A stretch of 32,407 bases of DNA from a virus (lineage: Duplodnaviria; Heunggongvirae; Uroviricota; Caudoviricetes), in the IMG/VR virus record IMGVR_UViG_2579779007_000009, positions 1 through 32,407 of that record; one strand, 5' to 3'. Made by a program: the position numbers and the translations under genes. Each line of letters starts with the position of its first letter. Within the stretch, counting starts at the first letter, position 1. A model generated the notes under the pieces. It saw only the letters and a program-made list of their open reading frames with translations, made no database searches and was not told the origin of the DNA. Positions 20,493-26,995 of this stretch are shown piece after piece.

Positions 20493-22742
20493 ATGAGCAC
20501 AAAATTCAGAACCGTTATCACCACTGCCGGTGCAGCAAAGCTGGCAGCGGCAACCGCACCGGGAGGGCGGAAGGTCAACATTACCACGATGGCCGTCGGG
20601 GATGGCGGGGGTAAATTGCCTGTCCCGGATGCCGGACAGACCGGGCTTATCCACGAAGTCTGGCGACATGCGCTGAACAAAATCAGTCAGGACAAACGAA
20701 ACAGTAATTATATTATCGCAGAGCTGGTTATTCCGCCGGAGGTGGGCGGTTTCTGGATGCGTGAGCTTGGCCTGTACGATGATGCGGGAACGTTAATTGC
20801 CGTGGCGAACATGGCCGAAAGTTATAAGCCAGCTCTTGCCGAAGGCTCAGGGCGTTCGCAGACCTGCCGCATGGTCATCATCGTCAGCAGTGTGGCCTCA
20901 GTGGAGCTGACCATTGACACTACAACGGTGATGGCAACGCAGGATTACGTTGATGACAAAATTGCAGAACATGAACAGTCACGACGTCACCCGGACGCCT
21001 CGCTGACCGCCAAAGGTTTTACTCAGTTAAGCAGTGCGACCAACAGCACGTCTGAAACACTGGCCGCAACGCCGAAAGCGGTAAAGGCCGCGTATGACCT
21101 TGCTAACGGGAAATATACTGCGCAGGATGCCACCACAGCGCGAAAAGGTCTTGTCCAGCTCAGTAGTGCCACCAACAGCACGTCTGAAACGCTCGCCGCA
21201 ACACCAAAAGCGGTAAAGGCCGCGTATGACCTTGCTAACGGGAAATACACTGCACAGGATGCCACCACAGCGCGAAAAGGTCTTGTCCAGCTCAGTAGCG
21301 TCACCAACAGCGATTCTGAAACGCTTGCGGCAACGCCAAAGGCGGTTAAGACAGCGTATGACCTTGCTAACGGGAAATACACTGCACAGGATGCCACCAC
21401 CGCGCGGAAAGGCCTTGTCCAGCTCAGTAGCGCCACCAACAGTGATTCTGAAACGCAGGCCGCAACACCAAAAGCGGTGAAGTCTGCCTATGACAATGCT
21501 GAAAAACGTCTTCAGAAAGATCAGAACGGTGCGGATATTCCTGATAAAGGACGCTTCCTGAGTAACATTAATGTTTACAGCAAAGGTGAAGTGGATAAGA
21601 AAAAGGGAATGCGAAAGTATTCGTTTGCAGCCCCTGCAAATGTCGTTGCCGGGAAGTGGTATCCCGTTATCTTTCGCCGTGCTGCCAGCCTTTCAGGAGA
21701 AATGGCATCCCGCGTCGTTATTTCCACTGGTTGTTATAACAGCGATTATGTAATGAATAACTGCGAGTTTAATGGCATGGTTATGCCCGGAGGCTGGACT
21801 GATCGTGGTTCATATGCGGCAGGTTATTTCTGGACGTATCAGACTAATGAGCGTTCAATCCATTCCATTGTTACAAGCCTGAAAGATGATGATGTATGTA
21901 GTGTTTTTTATGTTGAAGCCAGAGCTTTCCCTGTGCAAATTCTTGCAGAGGAAGGGCTAACGGTTATTGTTCCGACAGAGGATTATGTCGTCGGTCAAAC
22001 GACATATAAGTGGGGGGCAACTAATCCTGCTACAGAAAGCACGAACGCACAGGCTATTCTGGATTTTAAAAATGGGCGCGGTTATTACTGCTCACATCCA
22101 TTTATTTCCAGCCTTTCGGGAAATGCTGCAACAGCAACGAAGTTAGCGAACGCAAGAAATATTAATGGTGTCAGATTTGATGGCTCTGCTGATATAAATA
22201 TTAATACACTGGTATCCAGAAACCGTGTTACTGCATTAGGTGGGAGCGTAAAGGGGACACCAGGTATTCAGATGTATGAGGCATACAACAATGGCTACCC
22301 AACAGCCTATGGTAATGTGCTTCATCTCACTGGCGTAACCGCAGTAGGAGAGGGTGAGTTACTTATTGGCTGGAGTGGAACCAGCGGTGCTCATGCTCCG
22401 GCATATATTCGCTCCCGACGAGATACCACAGATGCTAACTGGTCTGGATGGGCGCAACTATATACAACTGCTCATAAACCCTCAGCGGGAGATGTTGGTG
22501 CATACACCAAAGCTGAATCAGATTCACGTTATGTGAGAGACATGCGGCTGGGCGGTGCATCTACATATAAACCAGCAAATAATGGTACTACATGGACGCA
22601 TCAGGCTCCGTCAGGTTGCGTATATACCGGCATTATTGTTCAGGATACCGGCTCAAACTCTGCCGATAACATTGGTGGCGTATATTACAGACCGGTGCAG
22701 AAATACATTAACGGGACATGGTATAACGTGGCGCAGGTATAA
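20493..22742 (+). CDS. H: Tail fibre protein H, 749 aa, with internal tandem repeats and a compositionally distinct distal part
   Basis: N-terminus MSTKFRTVITTAGAAKLAAATA... as recalled for P2 gpH; 44-aa tandem repeats; followed by assembly chaperone G. Confidence 0.9.
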   Translation: MSTKFRTVITTAGAAKLAAATAPGGRKVNITTMAVGDGGGKLPVPDAGQTGLIHEVWRHALNKISQDKRNSNYIIAELVIPPEVGGFWMRELGLYDDAGTLIAVANMAESYKPALAEGSGRSQTCRMVIIVSSVASVELTIDTTTVMATQDYVDDKIAEHEQSRRHPDASLTAKGFTQLSSATNSTSETLAATPKAVKAAYDLANGKYTAQDATTARKGLVQLSSATNSTSETLAATPKAVKAAYDLANGKYTAQDATTARKGLVQLSSVTNSDSETLAATPKAVKTAYDLANGKYTAQDATTARKGLVQLSSATNSDSETQAATPKAVKSAYDNAEKRLQKDQNGADIPDKGRFLSNINVYSKGEVDKKKGMRKYSFAAPANVVAGKWYPVIFRRAASLSGEMASRVVISTGCYNSDYVMNNCEFNGMVMPGGWTDRGSYAAGYFWTYQTNERSIHSIVTSLKDDDVCSVFYVEARAFPVQILAEEGLTVIVPTEDYVVGQTTYKWGATNPATESTNAQAILDFKNGRGYYCSHPFISSLSGNAATATKLANARNINGVRFDGSADININTLVSRNRVTALGGSVKGTPGIQMYEAYNNGYPTAYGNVLHLTGVTAVGEGELLIGWSGTSGAHAPAYIRSRRDTTDANWSGWAQLYTTAHKPSAGDVGAYTKAESDSRYVRDMRLGGASTYKPANNGTTWTHQAPSGCVYTGIIVQDTGSNSADNIGGVYYRPVQKYINGTWYNVAQV
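21012..21500 (+). repeat. In-frame tandem repeat inside H: about 3.7 copies of a 132-bp (44-aa) unit
   Basis: Unit K-G-L/F-x-Q-L-S-S-A/V-T-N-S-x-S-E-T-L-A-A-T-P-K-A-V-K-A-A-Y-D-L-A-N-G-K-Y-T-A-Q-D-A-T-T-A-R read directly, with copies starting at 21012, 21144, 21276 and 21408. Confidence 0.9.
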
Positions 22743-22745
22743 TTT

Positions 22746-23273
22746 ATGCAGCATTTAAAAAATATTACGGCGGGTAATCCAAAAACGGTTGAACAATATC
22801 AATTGACAAAGGACTTTGATGTTGTCTGGTTTTTTTCAGAAGATGGTAAGAACTGGTACGAAGAACAAAAGTATTTTGCTGATGACACGATAAAAATAGC
22901 GTACGACAAAGATAATATCATCCACTATGTGGAAAAGGATGTGACAGCTATCAGACCGGATGGATTAAGTGTTGTTGAAGTGGCGGATATTACTGCTAAC
23001 CGACGGGCGGACATTTCAGGGAACTGGATGTTTAAGGACGGCAAAGTGATTAAACGCATTTATACGGCAGAGGAATTACAGCAGCAGGCAGAAATTCAGA
23101 AAGCCAGACTTCTTGCAGATGCTGAATCCGTGATTTTGCCGCTGGAGCGCGCGGTCAGACTGAACATGGCAACAGATGAGGAGCGTAGCCGACTGGAATC
23201 ATGGGAACGCTACAGCGTTCTGGTCAGTCGTGTGGATCCTGCAAATCCTGAATGGCCGGAAATGCCGCAATAA
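22746..23273 (+). CDS. G: Tail fibre assembly chaperone G, 175 aa
   Basis: Immediately downstream of H; size matches P2 gpG. Confidence 0.85.
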
Positions 23274-23312
23274 GTTGTATTAGCTTACATATCTATGGCA
23301 CAGAGTAAAGCC

Positions 23313-23350
23313 TAATCTGACAGTCCGCTCTGTGCCAGGAGCGGAAGTCG
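23313..23350. repeat. Left arm of an imperfect inverted repeat flanking the G-FI cargo island
   Basis: AATCTGACAGTC...GAGCGGAAGT here pairs with the reverse complement of 25584..25624; coordinates hand-counted. Confidence 0.6.
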
Positions 23351-23455
23351 ATTGATGACTCACTACTAATTCGTCTTGCTTACTCCTAATGTTGATAAAT
23401 GTGAATAAGATTAATACTATAAAGAATTATAATTTAATAGACGGCGGTTTAGGTA

Positions 23456-24382
23456 ATGGGCGAGTTCTCAAAATATGTCGGCGAGGTGGGCGAAGAGATA
23501 GTCAATGACTTTCTGAAACTCTTTGGATGGAAAAACCTATGTAGTAACAAGCAATTAGATTGCTGCGTGGGAGAACATGCTAAAAAGACACATGGAATAG
23601 ATGCTTTGTATGTCTACAACTCTATGCTTCAAAAACAATCATTAGTAAGCGTTGTTGTTTCTGCAAAGTATTCATCAGTACCTTACGATAAAGTCAAAAC
23701 TACTTTTCGCTCACATTTCAAAGACTTGGCACACACCATTGAATGTTATTCAAAATCCCAGTTTAAAAGAACCATAACAAGACAATTTCCAGGTAGTTCA
23801 AGAAAAGAAGATATTGGGGTTTTGTTTTATTTAAATAATGATGAAAGCGATTCAAATGATAATATTAAAGGTGAAATCATCAATCATAGAATCGATTCTA
23901 CCCTCAAGTTCAACGCCATACATCTCGTTGATAACGCAAGAGCAAAATTTTTATACAACTCGATAAGCTTTATCAAGAAAAAGCATGGTGAAATATCTTT
24001 TTTCTGTCTTAACACTACCTTAAATGTTTCATCTTCAACAAGACATTCTAAAATAATGCCTGTTGAATACATTACCTCTCCAATAATTCCCATTTCTGTG
24101 CCTGATGATAATGGGCGAAAATTTATATTACTTTGCGATTTTAATTACAGTAAAGAATCACTAGGGTTGGTGTATAAATTAGCTAGAAAGCTTTGTTCCG
24201 ATTTCGCAAATCATTATGAGATTTATTTCAATAAATATAATAAACTCACAGACTCCCCTTCAGTTGATGAAGTCAAAATGGCGCAAAATTTTGAAGATGG
24301 CTCTGAGGATGTCGTTGGAGATATTACATTAATCGTTGATTCTTATAATAGCACCTTCAGGAGCATTTCTGATGAAAAATGA
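23456..24382 (+). CDS. Cargo protein 1 of the G-FI island, 308 aa; possible PD-(D/E)xK-like nuclease N-terminal domain
   Basis: AT-rich ORF; N-terminal order of acidic helix (GEVGEE), HGIDALYVY strand and VVVSAK strand; no homolog recognised by recall. Confidence 0.7.
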   Translation: MGEFSKYVGEVGEEIVNDFLKLFGWKNLCSNKQLDCCVGEHAKKTHGIDALYVYNSMLQKQSLVSVVVSAKYSSVPYDKVKTTFRSHFKDLAHTIECYSKSQFKRTITRQFPGSSRKEDIGVLFYLNNDESDSNDNIKGEIINHRIDSTLKFNAIHLVDNARAKFLYNSISFIKKKHGEISFFCLNTTLNVSSSTRHSKIMPVEYITSPIIPISVPDDNGRKFILLCDFNYSKESLGLVYKLARKLCSDFANHYEIYFNKYNKLTDSPSVDEVKMAQNFEDGSEDVVGDITLIVDSYNSTFRSISDEK

Positions 24383-25529
24383 TATTGATTTCATCCCCTC
24401 CGGAGATGAACTGAAAAATCTTGTGAGCCAGCAGAACTGTAGCTCTACAATGATCAATAATCTACTTAAAGAAAGAGGGCTTTTTTGCGGAGTGTCTGAA
24501 AAATCAGGCACAGTTCCAAACTTGATCACCTCTTTACTAAGCCCTGATGAATCTTATGATTTACTAAGCAGTATTAAAACAAAGGAAAAATTAGATAAAG
24601 TAAATTTCAGGAATTTTGATCTTAAGCAAGATGTTGATTTGCTTGGTGAAGTTAGTGGGTTTGTAGATGTTAGTAAAATCACAAAAAATGGTTACATTAA
24701 TTATGAGATATCAGATTTTAGCGATTTTACATCTCTAGATGGTAGAAGTAATAATTCCGTAATAATGGAGTTCGAAATTTGCAAGACAGATATTCTAGAT
24801 GATTGGTATATAACTGAGAAGTTCTTTAAAGGATCTGTGGAAATCAAGAAAGACGTTAATGGCATCACTGGTAACTCCCAGCTTTTAATGAATGTAAAAC
24901 TAAATCACACATCTCCGGAAACTAAAGAAATAGCTGAAAATGTCATAACCTTGATAGAGGAGCATTTGGAAAGAAATAATATAATTGAACATTCGCCTCA
25001 TCGAGGTAGAGTTCTGATGGATGATTTTGAAAATGAAAACAGAGTAAAATTCCTTAATGAATTAGCATCCCTTCATATTGGATACTTATTCTACCATCAA
25101 AAAATAGATGATGTTCATTTTAATCCGGATCATTCTACTGGTTACGAAAAACAATCAGATGCTGTGACTAATTTTCTCGAAAAAGATATTGACCAGTATA
25201 GAGTCAAAGGAAATCTAGAGAATATAATATCTATCAAATGGAAACACATACACCCGTATGTACGTGTTACTAAGGTTGTCGCAAGTTACACAATTAGCTA
25301 TGAATCCTATTCAGGTGAATGTAAGGTTGCATACGAGTTTAGTGAATATGGAAGAAAAACCCCTGTTAATCCTGAATTGTGCATTACCTTTATAAATATA
25401 AAGGTTAAAGGTGCGTCGCCCTCTAAAATACATGATATTCAATCAAACATTATGCGTGAGATTGAATTACGTAAAGTAGAATTGCTTACTAAATATAGAA
25501 AAGTTGCTGATGCTGAATCAAACAGCTAA
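24372..25529 (+). CDS. Cargo protein 2 of the G-FI island, 385 aa; unknown function
   Basis: ATG 24372 preceded by AGGAG and overlapping the end of cargo protein 1 by 11 nt (operon coupling); AT-rich; no motif recognised. Confidence 0.7.
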   Translation: MKNDIDFIPSGDELKNLVSQQNCSSTMINNLLKERGLFCGVSEKSGTVPNLITSLLSPDESYDLLSSIKTKEKLDKVNFRNFDLKQDVDLLGEVSGFVDVSKITKNGYINYEISDFSDFTSLDGRSNNSVIMEFEICKTDILDDWYITEKFFKGSVEIKKDVNGITGNSQLLMNVKLNHTSPETKEIAENVITLIEEHLERNNIIEHSPHRGRVLMDDFENENRVKFLNELASLHIGYLFYHQKIDDVHFNPDHSTGYEKQSDAVTNFLEKDIDQYRVKGNLENIISIKWKHIHPYVRVTKVVASYTISYESYSGECKVAYEFSEYGRKTPVNPELCITFINIKVKGASPSKIHDIQSNIMREIELRKVELLTKYRKVADAESNS

Positions 25530-25583
25530 TTCTATGGTTATGCTCCCGATTGATTAATACCCACTATTAACACGGGAGCAAAG

Positions 25584-25624
25584 CGAACTTCCGCTCCTCG
25601 CTCAAAGCAGACTGTCAGATTTGA
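25584..25624. repeat. Right arm of the imperfect inverted repeat flanking the G-FI cargo island
   Basis: Reverse complement TCAAATCTGACAGTC...GAGGAGCGGAAGTTCG matches the left arm at 23313..23350. Confidence 0.6.
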
Positions 25625-25682
25625 TAGCATTTGGGCTATGTAAATTGTCAGGCGGAAAATGAGTGAGTACAAATCAGGACAG

Positions 25683-25708
25683 GCGGGCGAATTGCCCGCA
25701 TTTTCTTT
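25683..25708 (+). terminator. Intrinsic terminator downstream of the cargo operon, upstream of FI
   Basis: Stem GCGGGC / GCCCGC with 5-nt loop followed by ATTTTCTTT. Confidence 0.6.
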
Positions 25709-25804
25709 ATCTGTTGTTTCATCCCCTGACCAGCCAGGTCAAATAGCGTCTCATGCTCTGCACAACAGAAAATAGTTGCACCCATTAACCACGGAGTTAA
25801 ACGG

Positions 25805-26995
25805 ATGAGTGACTATCATCACGGCGTGCAGGTGCTGGAGATTAACGACGGCACCCGCGTCATTTCCACCGTATCCACGGCCATTGTCGGCATGGTCTGC
25901 ACGGCCAGCGATGCGGATGCGGAAACCTTCCCCCTCAATAAACCTGTGCTGATTACCAATGTGCAGAGCGCAATTGCAAAGGCCGGTAAAAAAGGCACGC
26001 TGGCGGCATCGTTGCAGGCCATCGCCGACCAGTCAAAACCGGTCACCGTTGTCGTGCGCGTGGAAGACGGCACCGGCGATGACGAAGAAACGAAACTCGC
26101 GCAGACCGTTTCCAATATCATCGGCACCACCGACGAAAACGGTCAGTACACCGGACTGAAAGCCCTGCTGGCGGCGGAGTCGGTAACCGGTGTTAAACCG
26201 CGTATTCTCGGTGTGCCGGGACTGGATACCAAAGAGGTGGCTGTTGCACTGGCATCCGTCTGTCAGAAGCTGCGCGCTTTCGGATATATCAGCGCATGGG
26301 GCTGTAAGACTATTTCCGAGGTGAAAGCCTACCGCCAGAATTTCAGCCAGCGTGAGCTGATGGTCATCTGGCCGGATTTCCTCGCATGGGATACGGTCAG
26401 CAGCACCACCGCCACCGCGTATGCCACCGCCCGTGCGCTGGGTCTGCGCGCTAAAATCGACCAGGAGCAGGGCTGGCATAAAACGCTGTCCAATGTCGGG
26501 GTAAACGGTGTTACCGGCATCAGCGCCTCTGTATTCTGGGATTTGCAGGAGTCCGGCACCGATGCTGACCTGTTGAACGAGTCAGGTGTCACAACGCTGA
26601 TTCGCCGTGACGGTTTCCGCTTCTGGGGTAACCGTACCTGCTCTGATGACCCACTGTTCCTCTTTGAAAACTACACCCGCACCGCGCAGGTGCTGGCCGA
26701 CACGATGGCTGAGGCGCACATGTGGGCGGTGGATAAGCCCATCACCGCAACGCTGATTCGCGACATCGTTGACGGCATCAATGCCAAATTCCGTGAGCTG
26801 AAAACAAACGGCTATATCGTGGATGCGACCTGCTGGTTCAGCGAAGAATCCAACGATGCGGAAACCCTCAAGGCCGGAAAACTGTATATCGACTATGACT
26901 ATACCCCGGTGCCTCCTCTCGAAAACCTGACCCTGCGCCAGCGTATTACTGATAAATATCTGGCAAATCTGGTCACCTCGGTTAACAGCAATTAA
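25805..26995 (+). CDS. FI: Contractile tail sheath protein FI, 396 aa
   Basis: Translation and size match recalled P2 gpFI; strong GGAG upstream. Confidence 0.92.
   Translation: MSDYHHGVQVLEINDGTRVISTVSTAIVGMVCTASDADAETFPLNKPVLITNVQSAIAKAGKKGTLAASLQAIADQSKPVTVVVRVEDGTGDDEETKLAQTVSNIIGTTDENGQYTGLKALLAAESVTGVKPRILGVPGLDTKEVAVALASVCQKLRAFGYISAWGCKTISEVKAYRQNFSQRELMVIWPDFLAWDTVSSTTATAYATARALGLRAKIDQEQGWHKTLSNVGVNGVTGISASVFWDLQESGTDADLLNESGVTTLIRRDGFRFWGNRTCSDDPLFLFENYTRTAQVLADTMAEAHMWAVDKPITATLIRDIVDGINAKFRELKTNGYIVDATCWFSEESNDAETLKAGKLYIDYDYTPVPPLENLTLRQRITDKYLANLVTSVNSN

Follow-up and report, generated by a model that had tools for sequence, protein, structure and literature searches.

The DNA between positions 23276 and 25671 is very probably a non-autonomous, transposon-like cassette with ends derived from an insertion sequence (IS) of the IS481 family (ISVvu4/ISSod13 group), comparable to a "mobile insertion cassette" (MIC). 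The window, that is, the whole stretch of 32,407 nt of viral DNA that was analyzed, carries this cassette between the tail genes G and FI of a P2-like prophage. As shown by comparison with relatives whose site is empty, an ancestor of the genus Peduovirus gained such a cassette between the stop codon of G and the terminator originally after G. The features of the locus are as follows.

22746..23273, plus strand: gene G, tail-fibre assembly protein (Pfam Caudo_TAP, E=3e-34), left backbone neighbour
23271-23273: stop codon TAA of gene G
23269..23275: left 7-bp flank AATAAGT, candidate left copy of a target-site duplication, overlapping the G stop codon
23276..25671: the whole putative transposon-like cassette, 2,396 bp, without a transposase gene (L end, GapS4 cargo, R end)
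23276..23348, plus strand: L-type terminal inverted repeat (TIR); outer part TGTATTAGC..., inner part the left arm
23314..23348, plus strand: left arm; AATCTGACAGTC, then an imperfect palindrome (TCCGCTC...GAGCGGA)
23392..23420, plus strand: sigma-70-like promoter candidate TTGATA-17-TACTAT, a consensus match only, in the cassette and upstream of gapS4a
23456..24382, plus strand: gapS4a, 308 aa, first cargo gene (NCBIfam NF047933 antiphage_GapS4a)
24372..25529, plus strand: gapS4b, 385 aa from the ATG at 24372, second cargo gene (NCBIfam NF047934 antiphage_GapS4b)
25586..25671, minus strand: R-type TIR; read on the minus strand, TGTACTCACTCATTTTCCGCCTGACAATTTACATAGCCCAAATGCTATCA, then the arm
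25587..25621, minus strand: right arm, inner part of the R-type end
25672..25678: right 7-bp flank AATCAGG, candidate right copy of a target-site duplication
25683..25709, plus strand: backbone intrinsic terminator (GCGGGCGAATTGCCCGC then ATTTTCTTTA), just outside the cassette
25805..26995, plus strand: gene FI, tail sheath, right backbone neighbour (Pfam Phage_sheath_1, Phage_sheath_1C, Gp18_domIII_N)

A repeat search of the window found the inverted-repeat arms at 23314-23348 (plus) and 25587-25621 (minus). The arms are 35 nt long, match at 31/35 positions (89% complementary) and have a spacing of 2,238 nt. The degenerate 35-mer consensus of both arms has only two sites in the 32.4-kb window, which are the arms themselves; it gave 0 matches in 100 dinucleotide shuffles, and none is expected by chance. 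The 12-mer AATCTGACAGTC with at most one mismatch matches the window only at the two arms (0.11 expected). The imperfect inverted repeats of about 40 bp proposed in the original prediction were thus borne out, its arm coordinates were right to 1-3 nt, and the shared blocks AATCTGACAGTC and then GAGCGGAAGT were both found in the order it gave. G+C is about 32% in the cargo between the arms and 50-60% in the flanking tail genes.

The similarity of the arms runs on outward with indels for about 50 nt more per side, to 23276 and 25671. This extension had been overlooked in the prediction. The arms are just the inner third of longer TIRs of roughly 87 nt, which start at 23276 (5'-TGTATTAGC) and finish at 25671 (GAGTACA-3'). 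Both ends of the window copy align with the consensus ends of the cassette family, the left one with the L consensus and the right one with the R consensus.

The consensus ends of the cassettes have 26/27 terminal nt in common with one end of a 1.2-kb IS. The terminal pattern TGTATTAGCTCAGRYTYRANCTGA was found in 97 stretches from many genera, and one Methylococcales MAG has many copies of it at contig ends, as expected of a repeated mobile element. The 1.2-kb elements with the same termini code for a 346-aa HTH + rve protein (Pfam HTH_29 and rve/rve_3). This protein scored 288.8 bits against the NCBIfam model NF033577 "IS481 family transposase" (transpos_IS481, cut-off 224), and its relatives in RefSeq are annotated as ISVvu4 or ISSod13 family. 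Full-length IS with the termini TGTATTAGCTCAGACCTGATCTGACAG occurred in 77/5,426 E. coli genomes. A likeness of the terminus to the left end of phage Mu and to the ends of Tn7, Tn552 and IS21 was dropped once the IS481-family transposase was identified.

The terminal 26-27 nt of the ISVvu4/ISSod13-group IS, including the 1,201-bp E. coli copies, are nearly identical to those of the cassettes (TGTATTAGCTCAGAC.TGATCTGACAG). TGT...ACA termini and 7-bp target duplications are common to both, and the window TIRs also end in the TGT...ACA type. Unlike the IS, the window cassette lacks a transposase, has ends of about 87 nt instead of about 27 nt, and holds 2.2 kb of passenger genes. It also has distinct L and R subterminal arms, which are absent from the autonomous IS; the terminal 26-27 nt are all that cassette and IS have in common. 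An end of the cassette family consists of three parts: the terminal box TGTATTAGCTCAGACTTGATCTGACA, common to the autonomous 1.2-kb IS, then a spacer, and then the subterminal segment, which is the arm and which repeats the ATCTGACAG box and adds the imperfect palindrome. In the left arm of the window, AATCTGACAGTC is the second copy of the terminus box ATCTGACAG, and this repeated box may be a second, putative transposase-binding site. Any role of the arms in transposition is putative, as they are not part of the autonomous IS. The box in the arm, beside the palindrome, can also be given as AATCTGACAG.

Target duplications were scored on 40 distinct insertions having both termini, and mismatched partners served as the control. 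Perfect 7/7 direct repeats flanked 20/40 insertions (control 0.3%), and 6/7 repeats flanked a further 8/40 (control 1.6%). The duplication length of 7 bp was set by these 20 perfect duplications among 40 related insertions; IS481 duplications span 2-15 bp according to ISfinder-based reviews (PMC10045372). The 7-bp duplications were seen at IS copies (L148, L151, L178) and also at transposase-less cassettes of 0.5-5.5 kb (L080, L085, L110, L126, L160, L208, L211 and others). Two E. coli IS copies that were inspected had no target duplications. Judged by their flanks, family cassettes are shown to insert with 7-bp target duplications at many unrelated places, as the IS does. The flanks of the window cassette, AATAAGT and AATCAGG, match at 5/7 positions, which is weak alone, since about 11% of the mismatched controls equal that. 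With flanks of just 5/7, the insertion event in P2 rests on the empty-site comparison and on the behaviour of the family, not on its own duplication.

The empty site was found in PSP3 and Midge, which belong to sister genera with the same G-terminator-PF-FI backbone. The order is G stop, terminator, FI, and the G-FI gap of about 135 nt is collinear with the window minus 23276-25671, terminator hairpin included. A hairpin and T-run equivalent to 25683-25709 lies directly 3' of G in both phages, which indicates that 25683-25709 is the ancestral terminator that once stood directly after G. Neither phage has a copy of the arms, nor a half-site. In the genus Peduovirus, 13/13 annotated records have the arms at the G-FI junction, bracketing cargo, as do most P2-like loci in IMG/VR; the G of the window is 92-96% identical to the G of the Peduovirus records.

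Unrelated prophages, islands and plasmids, as well as other genera, also have cassettes with the same two end types. The arms were found beside integrases and other tail-fibre genes, on plasmids, and in genera without P2 sequence. E. coli genomes had a median of 1 and a maximum of 6 arm matches, all intergenic, and the ones looked at belonged to a P2-like prophage and to the leuX island. On these numbers, a high-copy intergenic repeat of the REP or ERIC type was rejected. The original prediction had offered the arms as either conserved backbone elements, such as a hairpin after G or a sequence before the FI promoter, or remnants of a mobilisation event. We favour the latter because of the IS481-type ends, the 7-bp target duplications and the empty sites in relatives. 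The backbone reading does not agree with the lack of a copy in PSP3 and Midge and with the arms in non-P2 contexts; the single copy expected in cargo-free relatives was not there at all in these two phages.

In P2-like phages, the outermost termini have decayed to 7-12 mismatches in 26. In the window, the L terminal 26-mer is degenerate, with 12 mismatches against the IS terminus, and the R terminal 26-mer has 10; the L-type TIR also has a 12-nt deletion in its outer part relative to other P2 copies. Because of the decayed termini and the 12-nt deletion, the window copy is probably immobile. The cassettes would presumably be mobilised by an IS481-family transposase acting in trans. In P2, the arms have remained and form the fixed borders of the defence hotspot Z/fun.

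The 88 cassettes collected across all loci contain 47 different cargo clusters, and each has one L-type and one R-type end. The original prediction had proposed a check of whether the arms are kept while the cargo varies, and this is what was seen in the 13 Peduovirus records and in the cassettes at large. The cargo is for the most part defence genes. A dedicated transposase or recombinase was not found in the cargo among the Pfam matches listed (per search, the 25 families with the most matching ORFs); the 118 cargo ORFs of the other cassettes had only secondary IS hits (DDE_Tnp_1, IS66, IS110) among the matches listed. When P2 cassettes with differing cargo were compared, homology extended 16-49 nt into the arm before it stopped, most often at 21 or 32-36 nt. 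When the same cargo was found in different G lineages, near-identity extended into FI and the 3' part of G. From these comparisons, the cassettes are shown to spread among P2 lineages via ordinary homologous recombination in G and FI. New cargo probably enters the P2 site by recombination within the conserved inner ends, presumably with other cassettes of the family, and a role of the arms as anchors for cassette exchange is plausible. No identical cargo was found in both a P2 and a non-P2 context, with one 72%-identical gene (L208) as the only similarity.

A much broader proposal is that one IS481-derived, transposase-less cassette family with composite 87-nt L and R ends is a general vehicle of accessory genes. 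It would establish and replenish defence hotspots in P2-like phages (all of Z/fun), other prophages, tRNA-linked islands and plasmids across Proteobacteria, and the arms would be the sites of cargo exchange, by a transposase-dependent route or by a swap at short homology. We regard this proposal as tentative and rather doubtful as a whole.

PMC8987985 cites Nilsson et al. 2004 for the inverted repeats around P2 Z/fun and for their interpretation as sites of site-specific recombination. Under such a reading, the arms would be sites of a recombinase that swaps cassettes between phages and bacterial chromosomes, analogous to integron attC or Xer pdif. The arms do stay fixed while the cargo differs, cargo boundaries cluster tightly at their inner edge, and each contains a conserved palindrome. 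However, no recombinase gene travels with the cassettes among the matches listed, no inverted cargo was found, and the empty sites have no half-site. The repeats also reach outward to the TGT...ACA termini common to IS481-family IS, and 7-bp target duplications at independent insertions are a signature of transposition, not of conservative site-specific recombination. Seen by eye, the arms are unlike the dif and attC consensus. Integron cassettes and the pdif modules of Acinetobacter are alike in being small accessory-gene units, with or without a promoter, that have short structured repeats and are exchanged between replicons, but they use tyrosine recombinases and leave no target duplication, whereas the family described here has transposon termini, duplications and no associated recombinase. 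Overall, we consider a site-specific recombinase improbable. Inversion of the cargo of the Gin, Cin or Pin type can be practically dismissed. The repeats are inverted and adjoin tail-fibre genes, and ENT90 and SopEPhi carry invertase remnants at this locus, but no cargo cluster occurred in both orientations (0 minus-strand hits of at least 300 nt when 88 cassettes were laid out from L to R), each cassette pairs one L end with one R end, which are distinct types, and the window cassette has no invertase.

It is also very unlikely that the arms are native regulatory elements of the phage (terminators or insulators in hairpin form, elements that stabilise RNA, or pieces of the PF late-promoter region) that mark the edges of a recombination-prone gap. 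A hairpin of 7-8 bp can form in each arm; across 110 arms, 82.5% of cells were paired, versus 36-46% in slid controls, and G-U-type pairs are tolerated mainly on the inward-reading strand. Yet the covariation score of the palindrome was 0.144 versus 0.146 in column shuffles; its sequence is conserved, but pairing is no better than in the column shuffles, and a selected RNA or DNA structure in the arm is not claimed. No canonical terminator was found at the arms: the left arm was undetected and the right arm, on the minus strand, fitted only a lax terminator pattern, while the actual terminator lies outside the cassette at 25683-25709. In PSP3 and Midge, the terminator and the PF-FI region are retained without arms, and the arms occur in settings without P2 sequence. 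Rfam families were searched for in the window with E values up to 10 and in four non-P2 loci with the gathering threshold, and none fell on an arm. The CTGACA in the arm was rejected as a promoter, as no suitably spaced -10 element was found by eye and scan.

An IS481-derived cassette is similar to known passenger-carrying, non-autonomous derivatives of IS, for example MIC231 of Bacillus cereus, the Tn3-derived TIMEs and mosaic non-autonomous transposons (PMC4133298). Like the MICs, it has IS-type inverted repeats around passenger genes without a transposase, duplications of the parental length and presumed mobilisation in trans. It differs from them in its parent IS family and in its long composite ends of two types. 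Its cargo consists mainly of anti-phage systems in phage contexts, and one copy is now a fixed part of a conserved phage locus and defines the hotspot there. This locus, with the same repeats and variable anti-phage cargo, is the P2 Z/fun (G-FI) defence hotspot (Nilsson, Karlsson and Haggard-Ljungquist 2004; Vassallo 2022; iLund4u preprint). Rousset 2022, Vassallo 2022, the iLund4u preprint, an NAR 2026 survey and an NAR 2024 MITE survey do not mention these repeats or IS481. The published accounts examined either present the hotspot and leave the repeats out, or take the repeats for site-specific recombination sites. The link to IS481, the extent of 87 nt, the duplications of 7 bp and the empty sites go unmentioned in them, among which Nilsson 2004 is represented by its citation elsewhere, and the IS481 and target-duplication reading of the Z/fun repeats appears to be new. 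In a survey from 2026 that covered thousands of P2 and P4 elements, transposable elements were almost absent from the hotspots, and the recombination that reloads them was said to "still need to be elucidated" (PMC13586616).

P2 Z/fun is among the best-studied phage defence hotspots. If its borders are IS481-derived ends, one transposition event, between the stop codon of G and the terminator, would account for the origin of the hotspot, and the earlier site-specific recombination reading of the repeats would need revision. There would then be a concrete, testable route for defence genes among phages, islands and plasmids, and the 87-nt ends with 7-bp duplications would be a sequence handle for more cassettes and new defence genes in any genome. 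If exchange at the arms is also true, it would answer how P2 hotspots get reloaded. The reading is an informative reinterpretation and not a new principle, since non-autonomous IS derivatives are a familiar kind of element and the repeats have been on record since 2004.

The cargo of the window is predicted by protein models to be a GapS4a/b anti-phage defence pair with its own candidate promoter. GapS4a scored 291.3 bits against NF047933 (cut-off 270), and GapS4b scored 324.1 bits against NF047934 (cut-off 300). The two genes are adjacent with an 11-nt overlap, and identical DNA in RefSeq carries the annotation gapS4a and gapS4b. In profile searches, the window cassette held GapS4a/b alone, without a transposase or invertase. 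The GapS4 homologue L239 had no arms on its readable side, and from 23391 onward the sequence of the window is conserved with this arm-less locus.

The window is a Peduovirus (P2-like) prophage, in which the sequence flanking the cargo shares 88-97% identity with many Peduovirus records. A repeat search returned a single outstanding inverted pair in it (35 nt, 31/35 complementary). The two-arm consensus matched no further site in the window and had 0 matches in 100 shuffles. The G+C content was about 32% in the 2.2 kb between the arms and 50-60% outside. Therefore, the original prediction was correct that inverted repeats surround the G-FI cargo. The features are as follows.

22746-23273: gene G, tail-fibre assembly, left neighbour of the cassette
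23276: start of the L end, three bases past the G stop
23314-23348 (+): left arm
23456-24382: GapS4a, above the NCBIfam cut-off
24372-25529: GapS4b, above the NCBIfam cut-off
25587-25621 (-): right arm
25671: finish of the R end (...GAGTACA)
25683-25709: terminator originally 3' of G
25805-26995: gene FI, sheath, right neighbour of the cassette

With fair confidence, we read the arms as the inner ends of a cassette that derives from an IS481-family IS, lacks a transposase and gave rise to the P2 Z/fun (G-FI) hotspot, and we infer roles for them in transposase binding and cargo exchange. The element is of the same kind as known non-autonomous IS derivatives, with passenger genes carried. The hotspot itself is well known. 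The repeats and their occurrence in bacterial genomes are not new either, since Nilsson et al. are cited for them by Benler and Koonin 2022, where the repeats are read as site-specific recombination sites (PMC8987985). A 2026 P2/P4 survey found transposable elements almost absent from these hotspots and left the swap mechanism open (PMC13586616). The accessible literature, which does not extend to the original of Nilsson et al., does not link these repeats to an IS, target duplications or empty sites.

At the G-FI junctions of annotated Peduovirus records, in 13/13 both arms were conserved at a constant distance from G and FI while unrelated genes were enclosed, as had been anticipated. When IMG/VR was scanned for the outer 19 nt of the arm, 119 loci came up, most of which were G-FI junctions. 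Over all loci, 88 arm-bracketed cassettes (0.9-5.9 kb) held 47 cargo clusters. Each of the 88 paired a single L-type arm (GTCCGCTCTGTGCCA...) with a single R-type arm (GTCTGCTTTGAGCGA...), and no cluster among the 47 occurred in both orientations relative to L/R. Among the matches listed, the cargo was mostly defence (Shedu, CBASS, DarT, AbiG, PD-T7-1, PD-T7-5, RES and others), with no dedicated recombinase. Cassettes outside phages also held non-defence genes, such as ClC channel, alkyl sulfatase, FadL and glycosyltransferase genes. Of 5,426 complete E. coli genomes, only 3 had DNA identical to the GapS4 cargo of the window.

In about 20 IMG/VR loci the arms were present and nothing else was shared with the window. 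The cassette lay 3' of a different myovirus tail-fibre gene in loci L022, L072 and L110, and in L085 a three-gene cassette adjoined two integrases and lambdoid genes. An arm-like sequence was found in the tRNA-Leu (leuX) island of E. coli O157:H7 EDL933 (L133 7001-7032; NZ_CP120944.1 ~4812578); it has an IS1203 copy on one side and small DUF genes on the other, and is downstream of an integrase. When the non-P2 copies were aligned, the likeness ran about 50 nt outward past the arm to a conserved terminus. Read inward, the consensus end is TGTATTAGCTCAGACTTGATCTGACAGTTTTCACTGGCAGCACACAATCA then AATCTGACAGTCTGCTTTGAGCGAGGAGCGGACATT, with the motif ATCTGACAG twice, in the terminal box and at the start of the arm. 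Compared with other P2 copies (e.g. L003 831-880), the L end of the window (23276-23313) has an internal 12-nt deletion between two GAGCT repeats (TGTATTAGCT|TACATATC vs TGTATGAGCTCTGGTGTGAGCTTACATATC), which is also found in L027, L091 and L238.

A terminal-pattern scan of one genome per species gave 97 stretches from Enterobacterales, Methylococcales, Alteromonas, Shewanella, Pseudomonas, Massilia, Acinetobacter, Bryobacteraceae and others. In many cases a contig end was about 100 nt away, as is typical of a mobile element present in multiple copies. One class of stretches, 1.2-kb units that bear this terminus of 26 nt at either end (L151, L178, L158, L148, L166), encodes a 346-aa HTH_29 + rve protein, which scored 288.8 bits against the NCBIfam 'IS481 family transposase' (cut-off 224). 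Plasmid relatives are annotated in RefSeq as ISVvu4 or ISSod13 family. Full-length copies occurred in 77/5,426 E. coli genomes, with the termini TGTATTAGCTCAGACCTGATCTGACAG and TGTATTAGTCGCGACTTGATCTGACAC. The likeness of IS and cassette is confined to the terminal 26-27 nt, and the arms are specific to cassettes. In the Methylococcales MAG TF_1, the IS terminus was on at least nine contigs, mostly about 100 nt from the contig end (L136, L139, L157, L166, L176, L182, L191, L193, L230), a sign that the autonomous IS has recently multiplied in that genome.

Target duplications were tested in 40 distinct insertions with both termini, with mismatched partners as the control. The flanks matched at 7/7 positions in 20 insertions (control 0.3%) and at 6/7 in 8 (control 1.6%). 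Perfect duplications surrounded both IS copies (L151 TATCAAA; L178 TTGTAGC; L148 CTTACTG) and transposase-less cassettes (L085 GCTAACT, where the insertion is in a terminator hairpin loop; L080 AATAATT; L211 CTTAATA; also L126, L160, L162, L208 and others). For the window element itself, the flanks AATAAGT and AATCAGG agree at 5/7 positions, which is not significant alone. The IS481 target is NCTAGN, and duplications such as CTTAATA, CATTAAA, GCTAATA and CATAAAT are a hint of a target preference recalling it. The insertion sites in L134-L230 were A+T-rich and very often at or just past a stop codon (...TAA...) or in or beside terminator hairpins (L085, L022). A length of 7 bp falls inside the 2-15 bp range reported for the IS481 family (PMC10045372). 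In a different Peduoviridae-like lineage with a sheath only 46-47% identical (L066, L078, L089, L124), a 2.1-kb cassette with GmrSD-like cargo and flanks ACTTGGA/ACTTAGA (6/7) lies about 1.3 kb upstream of the sheath gene; here a cassette has inserted independently close to a gene of the same type.

In PSP3 (Eganvirus; FI 89% identical) and phage Midge, G and FI are only about 135 nt apart, and this interval aligns with what is left of the window when 23276-25671 is cut out, in the order G stop, short spacer, GC hairpin with T-run, PF region and FI start. Hence the element is an insertion between the G stop and a terminator once directly 3' of G. On the question whether cargo-free relatives retain a single repeat copy, PSP3 and Midge lack the whole segment. 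The repeats had been read tentatively either as a mobilisation remnant or as hairpin-forming backbone elements. The former is supported by the IS481-type termini, the 7-bp duplications and the empty sites. As for the hairpin, each arm does contain an imperfect 7-8-bp palindrome, and in 110 distinct arms 82.5% of cells paired vs 36-46% with slid partner columns. Column shuffles paired equally (82.6%) and the covariation score was not raised (0.144 vs 0.146), so the palindrome is treated as conserved sequence rather than demonstrated structure. Neither window arm is a convincing terminator and no Rfam family falls on the arms, and a backbone hairpin is not supported. For the mobile cassette, the most economical reading is that the AATCTGACAG box of the arm would be a second, subterminal transposase-binding site. 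The G-FI intervals of SopEPhi (L237) and ENT90 (L235) hold other morons, i.e. a sopE cassette and DNA-invertase remnants, without IS481-type ends; thus, the gap is a hotspot by more than one mechanism.

The P2 terminal boxes are decayed (7-12 mismatches in 26), so the window copy is probably no longer mobile. Where different G lineages had identical cargo, they were also near-identical far into the 3' part of G and into FI; spread among P2 phages is therefore by homologous recombination of the ordinary kind in the genes on either side. When P2 cassettes of unlike cargo were compared, homology always spanned the outer arm and stopped 16-49 nt into it (modes 21 and 32-36). P2-specific outer ends are kept whatever the cargo, and arm variants typical of non-P2 copies (GGCCGC...) occur in some P2 cassettes; together these suggest that new cargo enters via crossovers within the inner ends; no donor-recipient pair was found among the P2 and non-P2 loci compared. 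A GapS4 homologue elsewhere is 82% identical to the window from 23391 onward and adjoins an ORF resembling the UmuC C-terminus (by eye). No arm was found upstream of it, and its downstream side is off the contig end; the module and its promoter region are thus also present in a second setting, apparently without these ends as borders.

Several irregular arrangements were seen. In L026 (2382-2521; also L051 and L102), a third, weaker inverted arm (AAGCTGACAGTCTGGTTTGGACTGTGAGTTCAAC...) lies only 100 nt past the L arm, before the real cargo and R arm, and is similar to the R-end variants seen in L080 and L049; a nearly empty cassette may have become fused to a full one here. L119 (8421-11431) has two L-type arms in direct orientation, then one R arm, and in L221 two L-type ends are separated by 600 nt (5563 and 6161); cassettes in tandem or nested in one another, or a lost R end, are suggested by these arrangements. 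Within the window cassette, a strong stem-loop (GCTCCCG...CGGGAGC, 25541-25580) directly follows the gapS4b stop; folding of 25530-25650 gave z = -3.0 vs shuffles, and it may be the cargo's own terminator, though without a clear T-run. Gene H (tail fibre, 20493-22742) has tandem-like internal repeats at about 21000-21560 and four Phage_fiber_2 repeat stretches (Pfam), and its region 21024-21500 was matched in several registers by BLAST of related loci.
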